Assembly: GCA_963715895.1 (NCBI GenBank)
Contig: OY970284.1
Coordinates: 4,771,892 to 4,835,891, forward strand
Source: Thermoanaerobaculia bacterium
GTDB lineage: Bacteria; Acidobacteriota; Thermoanaerobaculia; Gp7-AA8
Reading direction: 5' to 3'
Length of the DNA: 64,000 nucleotides
Of the stretch, positions 3,110-64,000 are shown in pieces. How positions within the stretch are numbered: the first letter of the stretch is position 1; every line of letters begins with the position of its first letter. The notes under the pieces are model-generated. The model did not search any database. It was not told where the DNA came from and saw only the letters and a list, made by a program, of their open reading frames with translations. Both the position numbers and the translations under genes were made by a program.

Positions 3110-3745
3110 TCAGGGGATCAGCCTCAGATCCTTCCCCTTCTGCACGGCCTGGACGCGCCTGTTGACCTGCATCTTCTCGAACAGGCGGGAGGAGTGCGTC
3201 TTCACCGTATTCTCGGAGACGAAGAGCTTCTCGCCGATCTCGCGGTTGCTCAGACCCTGGGCGATGAGACCAAGGATCTCGTGCTCGCGGGCGGTGAGAC
3301 CGACTTCCTTCAGCTTCTCGGAGTTGAGGGTAAACGGACCGTCCATCCGCACCGGAACTTCCCGGATCACCACCACTTCCTTCGCGCGTGTCCATCGCAG
3401 CCCGAAGTAGATGCCGAGGGCGGTGAAGATCAGGGCGACCAGACCGCCGTAGATCTCGGAGGGGTATTCGTGGACGAAATGCTTGTACTCGATGATCTTC
3501 AGCAACGCGATTAGGACGCCGCCAACGGCTCCGTAGAGAACGACCTGTCTGACCATGGATGGAGGAAGTCTACCAATCGCCGAGGCGATTCGTCGCTCCT
3601 CCGTGAGCCAGGTCACCGCGTCCTTTTCGTTCCGAACCGAGAATGGTGCGAGACGAACCGGCAACGTCTCCCATCGCGTCTCCGCCTTGGCCACCTCGAA
3701 AAAACGACCCATAAGGAGCTTCCTCTTGCGCTGTCTGTCTGTCAT
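3110..3745 (-). CDS. LuxR/FixJ-family HTH transcriptional regulator with N-terminal membrane segment
   Basis: C-terminal LuxR-type HTH (LTAREHEILGLIAQGLSNREIGEKLFVSENTVKTHSSRLFEKM); central hydrophobic helices. True start is uncertain: Met at 3745, 3712 or about 3552. It may be shorter, because the 3745 start would overlap the divergent ATG at 3744. Confidence 0.65.
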   Translation of the reverse strand: MTDRQRKRKLLMGRFFEVAKAETRWETLPVRLAPFSVRNEKDAVTWLTEERRIASAIGRLPPSMVRQVVLYGAVGGVLIALLKIIEYKHFVHEYPSEIYGGLVALIFTALGIYFGLRWTRAKEVVVIREVPVRMDGPFTLNSEKLKEVGLTAREHEILGLIAQGLSNREIGEKLFVSENTVKTHSSRLFEKMQVNRRVQAVQKGKDLRLIP

Positions 3746-11850: not shown

Positions 11851-11998
11851 AGGTTGCTGGGTTGCTAAGTTGCTGGGTTGCTTGGTCTCGCAGTCTCGCG
11901 GTTTCGCGGTCTCGGGGGTGTTTTGGCCGAATGTCACCCCGCGCGACTTCCAAACCACGAGACCTCGCAACCCAGCAACCCTGCAACGCAGCAACCCA
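11851..11998. repeat. Dispersed GGTTGC/GCAACC inverted-repeat element, copy 1
   Basis: Left arm AGGTTGCTGGGTTGCTAAGTTGCTGGGTTGCTTGGTCTCG and right arm CGAGACCTCGCAACCCAGCAACCCTGCAACGCAGCAACCCAG are reverse complements; arms are built from tandem GTTGCT(G/A)G octamers; about 65-bp GC-rich centre. Confidence 0.65.
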
Positions 11999-35618: not shown

Positions 35619-35625
35619 GTTTCAT

Positions 35626-35689
35626 GCGGAGACGCGGAGGCGCGGAGAGGAAATGCGTAATCCCTCTCTCCGCGCCTCCGCGTCTCCGC
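35626..35689. repeat. Long near-perfect hairpin (25-bp stem) 8 nt after gene stop
   Basis: GCGGAGACGCGGAGGCGCGGAGAGG / loop AAATGCGTAATC / CCTCT(CT)CCGCGCCTCCGCGTCTCCGC; no downstream T-tract. Confidence 0.6.
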
Positions 35690-35730
35690 GTGAAACAATG
35701 GTGTACTCTTTGTAGAAACAAGGAGAAGCC

Positions 35731-38845: not shown

Positions 38846-38943
38846 AATGTTGAATGTTGAATGTTCAATGTTGAATGTTGAATGGACGGGAGACGGTCGC
38901 CTCCATTCAACATTGAACATTCAACATTCAACATTCAACATTC
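38846..38943. repeat. AT-rich heptamer-repeat palindrome (about 33-bp stem)
   Basis: Left arm (GAATGTT)x5-like CAATGTTGAATGTTGAATGTTCAATGTTGAATGTTGAATGG, 16-nt spacer, right arm its reverse complement; in the gap between the multidomain redox gene and the next gene. Confidence 0.75.
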
Positions 38944-38962
38944 GCCTTTCTCAGAGGCGTAC

Positions 38963-39796
38963 ATGCCAATAGCACGAAGCGGCGTCCTCTGGCGCCGGAT
39001 CTTCTTTCTTCTGCTCCTCGCCTTCACCGCGACCTTCATCTGGTACAAGAACCACGAATATCCGCACGGCGGCTCGCGATGGGGGTTGTTTTACGGGATC
39101 GTCGGCTTTTTCCTCTGCTATCTCCTGGCGTTCTTTGGAATCCGCAAGCGCTGGTACCGCTCGACGTTCGGCACCCTCGAACAATGGATGCAATCACACA
39201 TTTACCTCGGCATCCTGGTGCTGGTCATCCTCATTTATCACACGGGCGGACGATTTAACGACAAGATCGCCGTTGCCACGTTGATTCTGGTGGCCATTGT
39301 GGTATCGAGCGGGGTGTTGGGCGCGATTCTCTATGTGACCGTGCCGCGATTGTTAACCGAGGTTGAATCGAACCTGACGGTGGACGAGATATCGGAGCAG
39401 CTCAATCAACTCGCCAAACAGATGGCCCGTATTGCGTCGGGACGGTCGGCGCCATTTCAACGCATTTACAGCCAATTGATCCGCGAAGGCGAGCCGGGAT
39501 GGCTGGCCGGCTGGCGTCTGCTCTTCGCGCGGATGCGACGCGGTCCCGCGCCTATGGCTGGAGAGTGGACCAACCTCCTCAGCCTGGTGCAGAAGGACGA
39601 ACAGGAAGAGCTTCGTCAGCTGCTGGTCGTATCGCGGCAGCGAAAAGAGCTGCTGATCCGACTCATTTACCAGCAGCGCTACAAGAACGTCCTGGAGTTC
39701 TGGCTCTACATTCACATCCCATTCACGATTCTGCTGTTGCTGTTCGCGATCATCCACGTCGTGGCGGTGTTTTACTACGGGAGGGTCGCGTGGTGA
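38963..39796 (+). CDS. Polytopic membrane protein with two H-x13-H helices (putative di-haem b-type cytochrome)
   Basis: ATG at 38963; 5-6 TM helices, two of which carry His pairs spaced 13 residues apart (HIYLGILVLVILIYH; HIPFTILLLLFAIIH), as in bis-haem ferric-reductase/cytochrome-b-type domains. Family not recognised. Confidence 0.5.
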   Translation: MPIARSGVLWRRIFFLLLLAFTATFIWYKNHEYPHGGSRWGLFYGIVGFFLCYLLAFFGIRKRWYRSTFGTLEQWMQSHIYLGILVLVILIYHTGGRFNDKIAVATLILVAIVVSSGVLGAILYVTVPRLLTEVESNLTVDEISEQLNQLAKQMARIASGRSAPFQRIYSQLIREGEPGWLAGWRLLFARMRRGPAPMAGEWTNLLSLVQKDEQEELRQLLVVSRQRKELLIRLIYQQRYKNVLEFWLYIHIPFTILLLLFAIIHVVAVFYYGRVAW

Positions 39797-39928
39797 GGGA
39801 CTCTCTACGATTCCGCCCTCTAAATCCATCCGTTCCATTCCCTCTCGACGGAAGGGCGTGGCAAGAAATTCAACTGCACCGTGAGATTTCTCATACTCTG
39901 ACTGGAATCGTCGGCACCCTGTTACACG

Positions 39929-40112
39929 TCGAGAGCCTTCTCCCCCGCGGTTTTTTGCGGGGGAGAAGGTGCCGACAGGCGGATGAGGGGGCGCTTGGCA
40001 GGATGAGTCGCTATTTCCAGAGGAGTAACAAGGCATGCTGCTCAGCGCCCCCCTCATCCGCCTTCGGCACCTTCTCCCCCCGCAAAAAACCGCGGGGGGA
40101 GAAGGCTCTCGA
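39929..40112. repeat. Large nested inverted repeat (about 66-bp arms, about 50-bp spacer) upstream of the FHA-cytochrome gene
   Basis: Left arm TCGAGAGCCTTCTCCCCCGCGGTTTTTTGCGGGGGAGAAGGTGCCGACAGGCGGATGAGGGGGCGC; right arm its near-perfect reverse complement. Each arm also contains an internal 13-bp-stem hairpin (CCTTCTCCCCCGC ... GCGGGGGAGAAGG). Confidence 0.75.
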
Positions 40113-40199
40113 TGAAAAAGCCTGGGTAGAGGCTCAACAGGACCACGAGAAAGGTAGGGGCCAGCTACACCGGGCCGAACACCCGCGGGTGGCCACCCC

Positions 40200-42431
40200 A
40201 TGAGTTTCGTCATCCAGCGCGCTTCGGGGCGCGGGCTGGCGCTGACGCAGGTGCGGCGCGATCTGCTCCGCATCGGGCGGGGGACGAATGCCGAGCTGCG
40301 CTCGGAGAATCCTGCCGTGGCCCTCGAGCATGCCGTCATCGAAGGCGACGCCAACGGCTTCACCGTCACCGACAAAGGGAGCATCACCGGCACGTACGTC
40401 AATCGCCGGCCGGTGGAGACGGCGCGGCTGGCCAGGGGCGACGTCATCGAGATCGGCGACCTGCGCATCGAGGTACAGGTTCTCGAGCCGGGCAAGCCGC
40501 TCTTCGTCCGCGTCAGCACGACGTCATCCGTGGCGGGGGTATTCGCCGGCGATGACGAGGAGATCGTCCAGGGCGCGGGAGCCCGCGGCGGCGCGGTCAA
40601 GGCGCGGAAGATCGACTACGCCGACGCCTTTCGTCTCAAGCGCGCCTGGCTGACCAAGCTCTCGCTCATCGCCATCCTTCTGATCGTCGCGTTCCTTGTT
40701 GTGGCCGAGGTCACCAAACCGGAGAAACAGAACGCGTTCATGCCGGGAGGGATCTCGTCGGCGCACGCGCGGGCGAAAGATCCCAGAACCGGCGAGTTGA
40801 TCGGCAACAACTGCCGCGCATGTCACAACCCGTGGCGCGGCGTTTCCGACACGAGCTGCACCGAATGTCACGGCAGACTGCCGCATGCGGAGAACCAGAT
40901 CGGCGCTCCGGCATGCGCCGACTGCCACTCCGAGCATCGCGGCTTCGCCAAACTGGCCGCGGCCGCGGACGCCACCTGCATCTCCTGCCACGGCGACATC
41001 GCCGCTCATGTCAAGGATCCGGCCGCCCTGGCGACGAAACCGAAAGAGATCCTCCACATCCTCTCCTTCGGCGGCCAACATCCCGACTTCACGCCGCGGA
41101 GCGATCCCGACACCCTTCTCTTCAACCACGCCCTCCACCTCAAGGCGGGTGGCGTGTTCAACGGAGAAGGACGCCGCGAAGAACTTCAGTGCACGCAATG
41201 CCACAAGCTCGTCGAGACGAAGGGGAAAGTCGATCCCGCTCCGATCAGCTTCAAGAGCCACTGCCAGCGCTGCCACAAACTGACGTTCGATCCGCGCTTC
41301 CCTAACGTCGAAGTGCCGCATGGAGGCGATCCCGCCGACGTCTACGGCTTCGTCCTGGCCACCTACGCCGGCAACCGCGACATCATCGGCAAGAGTCCGG
41401 AAGAGGTCCGGCGCATTCTGACGCTGCGGCCGCCGTCGACTCCCGACCAGGGAGCGGTGCTCAACGCCGAGCAGGTCGTCAAGGTCAAATGCAGCAAGTG
41501 CCACATCCTCCAGCGCTCCGGCACCCGTCTGGCCGCGAAGACGCCCGAGATCCCGGCGCGCTGGTTCCTGAAGGCGAAATTCACGCACACGCCGCACCGC
41601 ACCCTTTCGTGCGAGTCGTGTCACGAAAATGTCCGTCAGAGCACCAATACGTCAGACGTGCTGATGCCTGTGCGCAAAGATTGCACCGGATGCCACGGCG
41701 GGCAGTCGGCCAAAACATCCAGTAGCTGCGCGACCTGTCATGAGTATCATGAGCATTCGAAGGTCTTGTTGACGAAATTGGGGGCTTCCTCCGGGAAAGG
41801 AACGCCTCTTGCCCCGAAGGAACATGGAGGCGGATCCCGGATGATCGAGACGGTTCTTCTGTGGGCCATCGTCCTGTTACTGCTGGTGGTGCTCGTGCCG
41901 GCAGGGTTGGCGCTGGTCCAGCGTATCCGGGCCGGCGAGCTCGATCGCGCCGCGGGCGTGCGCGCCGCGGCCGCGCAGCAGGCGCCGACAGCGAAGATTC
42001 CGCCGCTGCAGGGTTCCGAGACGCCGTCGGCTCCGCCGCCCGCCGCGCCGGCGAAGGCGCCGGACATCACGAAGATGGCTCCCGTCCCCACCGCCCCGGC
42101 GGAAGGATCGACGGTGATGGTGCAGTGGTATGGCCTCCTGCAGTGCACCGGCGGCGCGCTGGAAGGACAGCGCTTCGTCATCGAAGAAGGCGGCCTCTAC
42201 ATCGGCCGCGATCCGGCCATGTCGCAGGTGGCCATCTCGGACAAACGCATCTCCAAACGGCACGTGCGGATCATTCCGCGTGATGGTAAGGTAATGGCCA
42301 TCGATCAGAACTCGACGAACGGTACGTTCCTCGGCAAGGCCGGCGGCGAGCGGATCACCGAGGTACAGCTCAAACGGGGAGACGTTCTCGTCCTGGCCGA
42401 CAACGCGGCCACGTTTGTGTACCAGATATAG
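40200..42431 (+). CDS. FHA - TM - decahaem c-type cytochrome - TM - FHA protein
   Basis: 743 aa. N-terminal FHA (LLRIGRGTNAELRS...GSITGTYVN...GDVIEIGDLRI), TM1 (LSLIAILLIVAFLVVAEV), ten CxxCH motifs (CRACH, CTECH, CADCH, CISCH, CTQCH, CQRCH, CSKCH, CESCH, CTGCH, CATCH), TM2 (VLLWAIVLLLLVVLVPAGLALV), Pro/Ala linker, C-terminal FHA (LYIGRDPAMSQVAISDKRISKRHVRI...STNGTFL...GDVLVLAD). Confidence 0.85.
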   Translation: MSFVIQRASGRGLALTQVRRDLLRIGRGTNAELRSENPAVALEHAVIEGDANGFTVTDKGSITGTYVNRRPVETARLARGDVIEIGDLRIEVQVLEPGKPLFVRVSTTSSVAGVFAGDDEEIVQGAGARGGAVKARKIDYADAFRLKRAWLTKLSLIAILLIVAFLVVAEVTKPEKQNAFMPGGISSAHARAKDPRTGELIGNNCRACHNPWRGVSDTSCTECHGRLPHAENQIGAPACADCHSEHRGFAKLAAAADATCISCHGDIAAHVKDPAALATKPKEILHILSFGGQHPDFTPRSDPDTLLFNHALHLKAGGVFNGEGRREELQCTQCHKLVETKGKVDPAPISFKSHCQRCHKLTFDPRFPNVEVPHGGDPADVYGFVLATYAGNRDIIGKSPEEVRRILTLRPPSTPDQGAVLNAEQVVKVKCSKCHILQRSGTRLAAKTPEIPARWFLKAKFTHTPHRTLSCESCHENVRQSTNTSDVLMPVRKDCTGCHGGQSAKTSSSCATCHEYHEHSKVLLTKLGASSGKGTPLAPKEHGGGSRMIETVLLWAIVLLLLVVLVPAGLALVQRIRAGELDRAAGVRAAAAQQAPTAKIPPLQGSETPSAPPPAAPAKAPDITKMAPVPTAPAEGSTVMVQWYGLLQCTGGALEGQRFVIEEGGLYIGRDPAMSQVAISDKRISKRHVRIIPRDGKVMAIDQNSTNGTFLGKAGGERITEVQLKRGDVLVLADNAATFVYQI

Positions 42432-44290: not shown

Positions 44291-44466
44291 CGCTACGTAG
44301 GTCGGACTCACGTAGGTCGGACTCACGTAGGTCGGACTCACGTAGGTCGGACTCTCTAGTCCGACCGGCGCTTGGGAGATCGGTAATTGATAACCCGCCT
44401 GTAGTTCAGAGCCGCGCAAGAACCGGTCGGACTAGAGAGTCCGACCTACGTGAGTCCGACCTACGT
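44291..44466. repeat. Composite tandem + inverted repeat element (MITE-like)
   Basis: Four tandem copies of ACGTAGGTCGGACTC (44295-44354), palindrome GGTCGGACTCTCTAGTCCGACC, about 57-bp spacer, second palindrome GGTCGGACTAGAGAGTCCGACC and two inverted copies GAGTCCGACCTACGT ending at the OMP start codon. Confidence 0.75.
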
Positions 44467-62600: not shown

Positions 62601-63914
62601 TTAGTGGAGCAACTCCAGCACCCCCAACGTCATCGCCTTGATCCCCCCGCGTAGCGTCGGGTCGGGGAGCGGCTGGAAGCCTGACGAATGCAGCGACGGC
62701 AGGCGCTGGCCGCTGGCGATTTTGGCGGGGTCGACGGCGCCGAGGTTGATCATGGAGATGGGGATCTTGCGGTCGAGGCCGAAGCGGCCGAAGTCTTCGC
62801 TGACCATCAGAGGGTCGATGCGGATGACGTTCGCGGCTCCCATGCCTTTGGTCAGCGCGGCGGCCAGGCGCTCGGTGAGCGCGGGATCGTTGTAGGTCGA
62901 CTCGACCGATTCGCCGGCGAGAAGTTCGAAGATCGGGGCGCGATCGTCGGGGACGCCGGCGGTCATGGCGATGCCGCGGGCGATCCGTTCGATCGATGCC
63001 AGCACTCGCTTGCGCACCTCGGGTTTATACGTGCGCACGGTCATCTGGAGCTGGACTTCGTCGGGGATGATGTTTCGCTTCGTCCCGCCGTGGATCGAGC
63101 CGACGGTGACGACGACCGGATCGAGCGGCGAGTCTTCGCGGCTGACGATCGTCTGCAACGCATTGATGAACTGTGCCGCCATCACCACCGGATCCTTCGT
63201 CGACTGCGGCGCCGCGCCGTGGCCTCCCATGCCGCGGATGGTCACGTTGACCGAGTCGGCGCTGGCCATGAAGTAGCCGGGCGTATAGCCGATCTGGCCG
63301 GCGGGCATGCTGGCGTTGTCGTGAAGGGCGATGATGAAGTCGGGTTTGGGAAAACGTTCATAGAAGTGGTCGCGGAGCATCCCCTCGGCGCCCTTGACCA
63401 CCTCCTCCGCCGGCTGGCCGATGAGCATCACCGTGCCGTGCCACTGCGACTTGAGCTGCGCAAGCATCTTGGCCGTGCCGAGGAGCGTGGTCATGTGGAT
63501 GTCGTGTCCGCAGGCGTGCATCACCGGCACGTCATCGCCCGAGGGGCTCTTCGCCCGGACGCTGCTGGCGTAAGGCAGGCCGGTCTGCTCCAGCACCGGC
63601 AGCGCGTCCATGTCGCTGCGCACCAGAACGGTCGGACCGGCGCCGTTCTTCATGATGGCGACCACGCCGTAGCACGTCGTCCCCGGCTCGGTGTATTGGC
63701 CGACGGGATAGGTGACCTCGTAGCCGAGCTCGCGCAGGCGCGACGCCACCAGCGCCGAGCTGTTCTTCTCCTGCATCGACAGCTCCGGCGCGGCGTGGAG
63801 CTGCTTGTAGGTCGCGACCAGCGAGGGGATCTCGCGGTCGATCATCTGATCGAGAGAAGACTGTGCGAAGGCTGACGATGCGATGAGAAGAGTGAGGATG
63901 GCGATTCGCTTCAT
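62601..63914 (-). CDS. M20D-family amidohydrolase (hippurate-hydrolase/aminoacylase-like), secreted
   Basis: ATG at 63914; signal peptide (MKRIAILTLLIASSAFAQS); metal-binding blocks HACGHDIHMT, GQPAEE, dimerisation domain. Confidence 0.85.
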   Translation of the reverse strand: MKRIAILTLLIASSAFAQSSLDQMIDREIPSLVATYKQLHAAPELSMQEKNSSALVASRLRELGYEVTYPVGQYTEPGTTCYGVVAIMKNGAGPTVLVRSDMDALPVLEQTGLPYASSVRAKSPSGDDVPVMHACGHDIHMTTLLGTAKMLAQLKSQWHGTVMLIGQPAEEVVKGAEGMLRDHFYERFPKPDFIIALHDNASMPAGQIGYTPGYFMASADSVNVTIRGMGGHGAAPQSTKDPVVMAAQFINALQTIVSREDSPLDPVVVTVGSIHGGTKRNIIPDEVQLQMTVRTYKPEVRKRVLASIERIARGIAMTAGVPDDRAPIFELLAGESVESTYNDPALTERLAAALTKGMGAANVIRIDPLMVSEDFGRFGLDRKIPISMINLGAVDPAKIASGQRLPSLHSSGFQPLPDPTLRGGIKAMTLGVLELLH

Positions 63915-64000
63915 GGGGTGATTATGCGGCTTCGCCGCGTTGTCCACGCTCCGCGCATCGTCTGCGATGACCTTCGCGGCGCCGCGATCGATCACTCTGT

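Follow-up and report, generated by a model that had tools for sequence, protein, structure and literature searches.

A nested inverted repeat of 184 bp lies at positions 39929-40112 of a 64,000-nucleotide stretch of DNA from a Thermoanaerobaculia bacterium (contig OY970284.1; the whole stretch is called the window below), between the gene of a predicted membrane protein and that of an FHA-domain multihaem cytochrome c. We found that this structure is probably a gene-less doublet of a dispersed repeat module, similar to a miniature inverted-repeat transposable element (MITE), which was inserted recently into an operon-like gene cluster and is the counterpart of a longer cassette carrying a gene of the DUF559 family. 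The original prediction, made from the letters alone, had taken it for a riboregulator-like switch or attenuator in the 5' leader of the cytochrome gene and had offered a MITE as the other possibility. The riboregulator interpretation is refuted. The fallback is supported: both arms are members of a family of dispersed repeats, and they correspond to the terminal inverted repeats that bound the DUF559 cassette. Since it is a gene-less copy of a dispersed repeat, recently inserted between two genes of an operon, the structure would not be a dedicated switch of the cytochrome gene.

The inverted repeat is real and occupies the coordinates first given for it. Its two near-identical arms of 66 bp (39929-39994 and 40047-40112) are separated by 52 nt, in agreement with the predicted distance of about 50 bp, and they differ by four single-base indels (C5/C6, G5/G6, GACAGG/GAAGG and G5/G6) and no substitution, instead of the one indel and one substitution that had been counted. 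The left arm, on the + strand, is one repeat module composed of TCGAGAG, a hairpin at 39936-39969 (CCTTCTCCCCCGC / GCGGGGGAGAAGG) and the tail TGCCGACAGGCGGATGAGGGGG. Its stem has the expected 13 bp (39936-39948 paired with 39957-39969, around the 8-nt loop GGTTTTTT), and that of the right arm, for which 13 bp had also been claimed, has 14 bp (40070-40083 with 40092-40105, 8-nt loop AAAAAACC). The right arm is the inverted module, on the - strand, with its hairpin at 40070-40105, and is of the subtype with GAAGG and C6/G6 runs. Folding of the RNA of 39900-40200 confirmed a very strong structure on both strands (the + strand reaches -203.6 kcal/mol and the - strand -198.7; z = -14, and none of 100 shuffles was equally stable). 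For the 184 nt alone, the extended hairpin has -157.5 kcal/mol, a cloverleaf that keeps both hairpins -139.3 and the two local hairpins only -61.9. Alternative folds are possible, as had been proposed, but they do not make a balanced switch, since with -157.5 against -61.9 kcal/mol the fold is not bistable.

The history of the site was followed in homologues of the FHA-cytochrome fetched with their neighbourhoods (percentages in this comparison are protein identities to the window). In all of them the gene order is preserved, with a flavoprotein, the 277-aa protein, the FHA-cytochrome and an HbpS-like protein. The spacer before the cytochrome gene measures 403 nt in the window, where it holds the doublet, its flanks and a remnant. 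It has 16 nt and no element in L121 (92%), 274 nt with a GTAG-tagged doublet of repetitive extragenic palindromic (REP) sequences in L303 (87%), 163 nt with a different GC-rich inverted repeat in L122/L123 (85%), 13 nt and no element in L304 (84%), 307 nt with a GTAG-REP doublet in L124 (82%), 61 nt of short, unrelated sequence in L125 (80%), 112 nt with a GTAG-REP doublet in L126 (79%) and 403 nt with a GTAG-REP doublet and other repeats in L127 (77%). The GTAG-REP of the filled spacers (L303 916-1189, L124 2694-3000, L126 2889-3000 and L127 2598-3000) is GTAGCCCCCGGCTTCAGCCGGGGG, flanked by GCCCGCTAAAGCGGGC hairpins. In the alignment with L121, the window has a block of 387 nt (39797-40183) that L121 lacks; it follows the stop codon and is succeeded by CGCGGGTGGCCACCCC (40184-40199, + strand), 16 conserved nt directly 5' of the start codon that are the whole intergenic spacer of L121. 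This block comprises the doublet with its outer flanks and what is left of another unit, and the site is empty in L304 as well. The element is thus a lineage-specific insertion, which occurred after the split from L121, the closest sampled relative, and the spacer is a hot spot for palindromic elements with fast turnover; a conserved leader RNA is thereby excluded.

This comparison bears directly on the possibility that the RNA switches between two local hairpins and one long stem and thereby controls the cytochrome gene. As in attenuators and riboswitch leaders, nested hairpins that permit alternative folds precede a start codon (87 nt separate the right arm from the ATG at 40200, close to the 90 nt predicted), and the fold is very strong on either strand. 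Unlike such leaders, the element is not conserved with the gene: it is missing from the orthologous site in L121 and L304, and other relatives have unrelated elements there. The energies of the folds are very unequal, the arms are dispersed repeats found beside unrelated genes, and their loop sequences differ across the module family. Neither a promoter-like nor a terminator-like site was found in the spacer 39797-40199, and there is no U tract after either stem. No Rfam family reached the gathering score in the window or in 18 loci; relaxed to E <= 10, the search of the region gave nothing but generic hairpin (miRNA) models, well below threshold. The placement in a 5' leader also failed, as the region is the intercistronic spacer of a conserved co-oriented cluster, with no promoter of its own, and the spacers of 13-16 nt in two relatives suggest co-transcription. 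We consider a gene-specific regulator of this kind extremely improbable.

A different function is compatible with the insertion of a repeat, namely that an intercistronic hairpin is retained for segmental mRNA stability or processing and that lineages recruit any palindrome available. Some palindrome is present in the spacer in 8 of the 10 sampled lineages, from at least three unrelated families, and such roles are hypothesised in PMC3733652 for REP sequences and bacterial interspersed mosaic elements (BIMEs). Against it, two lineages, among them the closest relative, have 13-16 nt only, and these two empty sites (L121 and L304) argue that a structural role is not required. Other spacers of the same gene cluster also collect repeats, which argues for a general tolerance of insertions. 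We regard a retained hairpin as rather unlikely. In L304, a 630-nt spacer (830-1490) is packed with two further palindromic families, one with GGGGTCGGGAGTCGGGGGTCGG-type arms and the other an GTAGCCAGGGGTGCGAGCG...CGAGCACCCCTGG doublet.

Each arm is a copy of a module of about 55-65 nt, with a hairpin whose 5' arm is pyrimidine (CCTTCTCCCC) and whose 3' arm is purine (GGGGAGAAGG), followed by a tail TGCCG..GGCGGATGAGGGG. The tail is G-rich, forms a mini-hairpin GCC-loop-GGC with a variable loop and has the end GGATGAGGGG. A scan for exact matches to GAGAAGGTGCCG-N0-4-GGCGGATGAGGGG, with one genome per species, found at least 120 loci with the module tail, where the spread and the copy numbers are lower bounds biased to the chosen tail variant. 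They belong to metagenome-assembled genomes (MAGs) of Thermoanaerobaculia and Acidobacteriota, to many Rhizobiales (including Mesorhizobium, Rhizobium, Ensifer/Sinorhizobium and Shinella), and to Xanthomonadales, Legionella bononiensis and unclassified Gammaproteobacteria. The 5' stem half CCTTCTCCCC was left unspecified in the pattern and is found in nearly all copies, and both window arms match the module profile (nhmmer, E of 3e-14 for the left and 2e-15 for the right). Hairpin loop and stem top are variable, with 75 distinct versions among 106 copies. These variable tops remain paired (2.39 extra pairs against 0.42 in shuffles), so hairpin formation itself is constrained. In Rhizobiaceae replicons, 324 records contain the module at 2152 places in total, seldom over an annotated gene, and each Sinorhizobium meliloti megaplasmid has 19-26 places; among the loci listed, relatives have several per MAG (SMAG_U3271 in L006, L035, L045, L056 and L094). 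The viral and prophage contigs of IMG/VR contributed 88 further records with exact matches (L215-L302), all of high GC (55-70%). A literature search with the module sequence strings gave no match.

The profile search in Thermoanaerobaculia showed that the module is present as singlets, as convergent doublets of the window type (L049, L040 with two in tandem, L042, L072, L084 and L088; spacers of 11-156 nt) and as divergent doublets (L003, L079 and L025), and that the doublet spacers differ in sequence from one doublet to another. The left arm is of a subtype with GACAGG and a 5' extension that is common to L049, L108, L001 and L131, and the right arm (GAAGG, C6/G6) is 94-95% identical to copies in L119 and L040. 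Because the arms belong to different subtypes, their four indels are subtype marks and not random decay. L049 has the same left and right subtypes and the same layout as the window beside different neighbour genes, and is nested in another palindrome family. A hairpin of GGTTGCT tandem units is found in the window at 11852-11996, and the same family brackets the L049 doublet (1868-1903 and 2243-2275), a palindrome inside a palindrome.

The outer surroundings of the arms also contain repeated sequence. The 5' extension of the left arm (39886-39928, + strand; ATTTCTCAT..ACTGGAATCGTCGGCACCCTGTTACACG) is part of a repeated unit common to L049, L108 (on the - strand), L001 and L131. The outer flank of the right arm (40113-40155, - strand) is only weakly similar both to this extension (TTTCTCGT / CCTGTT) and to the right flank of L049 (GAAARRGCSTGG). 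Further upstream, 39838-39868 (+ strand; CCCTCTCGA CGGAAGGGCGTGGCAAGAA) resembles the outer end of another right arm with its linker, and matches L049 2145-2171.

DUF559 is a very common domain of unknown function. Copies of the module in Legionella are followed by the apparent start of a DUF559 protein, and a DUF559 probe (its matches were validated by Pfam and by the K-12 annotation) matched L108 exactly between two inverted modules. The open reading frame (ORF) at L108 7215-7688 encodes a DUF559 protein (PF04480, E 2e-33), and the right module supplies the codons of its last 30 or so residues. Searched against metagenomes, this protein gave 80 loci. The nine closest homologues (62-88% identity) all carry one module 60-160 nt before the gene and a second, inverted one at its 3' end, so that the inverted pair brackets the gene in each of the 10 loci of one DUF559 subfamily. 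This cassette of about 0.7 kb is found in related Thermoanaerobaculia in at least eight unrelated contexts, and outside it the flanks are unrelated bar one duplicate pair. The window arms are about 95% identical to the cassette termini (the left arm was compared with the DUF559-flanking modules of L108, L130 and L136). The spacer between the arms (39995-40046) begins with about 10 nt (GCGCTTG) that resemble the start of the cassette interior, and the spacers of the window and L049 retain the first 10-30 nt or so of that interior. C-terminal peptides encoded by the module (for example PPHPPVGTFSP, PPHPPSAPSPP..GEK and PSSACRHLLPR) were present in 41 of the 120 best protein homologues and in 24 of the top 30. 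In Legionella bononiensis (L031 6805-7245 and L070 4170-4330) an inverted repeat of about 110 nt surrounds a truncated DUF559-like frame, and these GC-rich modules sit in AT-rich DNA, clearly foreign to the background base composition.

Proteins like YcjD are predicted to be PD-(D/E)xK nucleases with a relationship to Vsr (PMC1189080), and a single homologue has a solved structure, 3HRL, from structural genomics. In Rhizobiales the tail (for which see, for example, window 39970-39991) includes TGCCGGCA, which fits YGCCGGCR, a motif that Caulobacter ScmA is reported, in a paper on a Vsr-like protein, to methylate; this may be a coincidence.

The arrangement of gene and repeats could also be read in the opposite direction, with the doublet as an empty or emptied homing site and DUF559 as a homing-type nuclease gene that is copied into spacers, a parasite rather than a mobiliser of doublets that would spread by another route. 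The gene always occupies the space that the tails of a convergent doublet enclose, doublets without the gene (spacers of 11-156 nt) outnumber filled ones, the beginning of the cassette interior is kept in the spacers of the window and L049, and most DUF559 homologues are on very short contigs, as expected of multi-copy DNA. Homing leaves the spread of the doublets themselves without a mechanism, and the direct-repeat flanks of many DUF559 loci are not the usual homing signature. We consider this unlikely.

The link between DUF559 and flanking repeats extends beyond the cassette. Of 45 DUF559 loci that had sufficient flanking sequence, 25 show a match between one flank and the other, inverted or direct, with a score of at least 25; among 87 shifted control intervals there is 1 such case (p = 3e-13). 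Hairpins whose 5' arm is pyrimidine and whose 3' arm is purine reach 7.2 per kb within 250 nt of DUF559 and 0.24 per kb beyond 500 nt, a comparison of gene flanks with mostly coding DNA, and at ORF-free positions only they reach 11.3 against 1.9 per kb, with a control of only 3.1 kb. At least one such hairpin adjoins the gene in 72 of 77 diverse DUF559 loci, E. coli ycjD being one of them. In S. meliloti Ak57, CCCTCTCCCC/GGGGAGAGGG + TAGGGTGAGGGG modules form a 114-nt inverted repeat around the DUF559 gene, and modules of this kind also adjoin DUF559 in Azospirillum lipoferum, Picosynechococcus PCC 7002, Shinella and Sinorhizobium K101. In the 88 IMG/VR contigs no DUF559 was found near the module, and clustering of the ORFs of the 120 loci, aimed at a cross-phylum protein family beside it, gave only ordinary genes (for example ABC transporters); DUF559 did not surface in this clustering because it is too rare among orphan copies.

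In E. coli the spacer between ycjD, a DUF559 gene, and fabI (L214; K-12 NC_000913.3 1351040-1351406) holds the repeat GGTCCCCTCGCCCCTCTGGGGAGAGGGTTAGGGTGAGGGG, a hairpin-plus-TTAGGGTGAGGGG unit of which one copy is intact and two or three more are decayed. In all 5426 complete E. coli genomes the intact 46-mer occurs, with a per-genome median of 17 places, and no annotated feature lies beneath the five listed matches. This repeat shares with the module a C-rich/G-rich hairpin and a tail ending GTGAGGGG, and it adjoins the only DUF559 gene seen there; the stem sequence is different, and the likeness is limited to the architecture and the ..GAGGGG end of the tail. It is probably BoxC, as judged by the copy number rather than by sequence and by the first description of box C near envM (= fabI). 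The rhizobial module with the TGCCGGCAGGCGGATGAGGGG tail is presumably RIME (Rhizobium-specific intergenic mosaic elements) or the Sm-repeats. RIME is named as Rhizobium-specific, whereas the module is also found in Acidobacteriota and Gammaproteobacteria. The module is abundant in Rhizobiaceae, where it often adjoins a second palindrome, an arrangement also described for RIMEs. No published consensus for RIME1, Sm-repeat or Bru-RS1 was found in the literature search, and no paper linking DUF559 or ycjD to repeats was found in the open-access literature, which cannot prove that none exists. A table in PMC2267715 gives E. coli BoxC as 56 bp with 32 copies, and RIME and the Sm-repeats of Sinorhizobium meliloti are mentioned in PMC2573895.

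The closest known parallel in organisation is that of the REP, BIME and REPIN-RAYT systems of Proteobacteria (PMC3116915, PMC3337134, PMC3733652), REPINs being doublets of inverted REPs and RAYT the REP-associated tyrosine transposase. Both comprise short intergenic palindromes present as singlets, inverted doublets and clusters, with doublets that form long hairpins and often lie within operons, and both have a small nuclease or transposase gene flanked by its repeats. It could be asked whether the structure is a classical REPIN mobilised by RAYT. The arms are imperfect palindromes able to form hairpins (stems of 13 and 14 bp), the inverted doublet with a spacer recurs in the window, L049, L040 (twice), L042, L072, L084 and L088 together with singlets and clusters, as REPINs and BIMEs are described, and the same genomes carry GTAG-tagged REP doublets. 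No GTAG or CGTC tag, however, stands beside the stem on either strand (the adjacent bases are AGAG/GCGC on one strand and GGCA on the other), and CGTC occurs 5 nt from the stem, in one subtype only (tag definition: PMC3733652). The unit has 55-65 nt with a conserved G-rich tail, against 20-40 bp for REPs, and the bracketed gene is a PD-(D/E)xK (Vsr-like) DUF559 gene and not an HUH Y1 transposase. A RAYT probe, a weak test, had no match in the window or the 120 loci. The tail, with 27-28 specified bases, is conserved across phyla; REPIN-RAYT systems contrast in this, being described in the RAREFAN preprint as mostly vertically inherited. A classical REPIN is very improbable. The CGTC-tagged REP family was rejected as an assignment, as its members have 8-9-bp stems beginning with A/T and loops of 4-5 nt.

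With MITEs, of which the Correia/NEMIS elements of Neisseria are a named example, the element shares its small size (under about 600 bp), inverted ends without coding capacity, ends common to a longer gene-carrying element, presence/absence at orthologous sites between relatives and a position near genes. It differs in that no target-site duplication was seen, that the partner gene is no recognised transposase and that the ends are whole structured modules also found singly. The longer partner has the same ends in 10 of 10 loci, and its gene, DUF559, has no demonstrated transposase activity. In kind, the element is REPIN/BIME/MITE-like: it falls outside the REP definition (no GTAG/CGTC tag, no RAYT) and agrees with that of MITEs in part.

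The doublet probably came into the spacer along with fragments of adjacent repeat units; the spacer separates two co-oriented genes of the conserved cluster of four. The DUF559 nuclease could start events at the DNA level at the hairpin or a cruciform, by nicking followed by copying or repair, and gene-less doublets could be mobilised in trans by DUF559 in the way that RAYT transposases are thought to act on REPINs. We hold this mobilisation tentatively, at somewhat less than an even chance. In the polycistronic mRNA the element would be transcribed as a near-perfect duplex of about 80 bp, which would be a plausible RNase III substrate or exonuclease block, and any effect on the operon is most likely an incidental by-product.

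Several observations weigh against this reading of the structure as a mobile, gene-less counterpart of the cassette. The 64 kb of source DNA contain one copy only, as sequence and profile searches found no second copy in the window. The window has no DUF559 gene and the source contig carries none of the 120 listed DUF559 homologues, nor was a DUF559 remnant found in the 52-nt spacer or in the other gene-less doublets examined. No target-site duplication is evident at the window junctions in the alignment with L121; long direct repeats do flank the doublet in L049 and the cassette in L136, and these may be neighbouring repeat units. To our knowledge DUF559 is not a known transposase, and the association could have arisen if its genes came to lie in repeats that were already there, as cargo or by homing. 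Finally, the palindromes in the spacer of most relatives could reflect selection for an intercistronic hairpin and not mere tolerance of insertions.

The gene upstream of the element (38963-39796, + strand) encodes a 277-aa predicted membrane protein without a Pfam match, whose start is likely the ATG at 38963 and not at 38882, as orthologues have 276-277 aa; the FHA-cytochrome gene follows at 40200-42431 (+ strand). Together with the genes for a 792-aa flavoprotein with cyclic nucleotide (cNMP)-binding and 4Fe-4S parts and for the HbpS-like protein, they form the four co-oriented genes of the + strand. Between the 792-aa flavoprotein and 277-aa protein genes there is a hairpin with arms of tandem AATGTTG units (38846-38942), which overlaps the 5' end of the ORF at 38882-39796, the real start of which is probably the ATG at 38963. 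The hairpin is kept in L121 (2038-2133), and in L127 one copy occupies the other spacer. The window has several other long intergenic hairpins, with sequences unrelated to the element, among them the inverted repeats at 35619-35696 and 2188-2372, with GCGGAGAC-type units and a nested GC-rich repeat. A GTAG-tagged REP doublet (GTAG GTCGGACT CTCT AGTCCGAC) with tandem ACGTAGGTCGGACTC units lies at 44295-44466, at the same position 3' of the HbpS-like gene in L121, L122/L123 and L127, and its family is also found in L001, L010 and L108. Such doublets indicate that these genomes probably also have a classical REP/RAYT system. L001 has 87.5% nucleotide identity to window 62602-63930, and just past the shared gene it has a GTAG REP unit and one module copy (3425-3560), where window 63930-64000 is unrelated, a second presence/absence difference.

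For this genome, the result removes a false regulatory lead, as the structure is not part of the control logic of the FHA-cytochrome. More broadly, repeats of the hairpin-plus-G-rich-tail build, namely the BoxC type of E. coli, the RIME type of rhizobia and the present module, might constitute with the DUF559 Vsr-like nucleases a second cross-phylum system of a repeat and its dedicated enzyme, parallel to REPIN-RAYT, with the window doublet as a non-autonomous member, an idea we put forward as doubtful yet possible. In such a system a PD-(D/E)xK nickase flanked by its own repeats would create or maintain the dispersed copies, and horizontal spread of the cassette would account for the near-identical tail (27-28 specified bases) that Acidobacteriota share with Alpha- and Gammaproteobacteria. 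The interest lies in the cross-phylum module and its nuclease partner; the element itself is of a REPIN/BIME/MITE-like kind. We know of no enzyme tied to BoxC- or RIME-type repeats. These are known as families of unknown function (PMC2573895). If true, a consistent physical link of repeats to DUF559, from E. coli, rhizobia, cyanobacteria and Legionella to Acidobacteria, would provide each of the two with a testable role, and it would explain the presence of a near-identical repeat in unrelated phyla, the odd proline/glycine-rich tails of DUF559 ORFs and the very short metagenomic contigs on which they are found.

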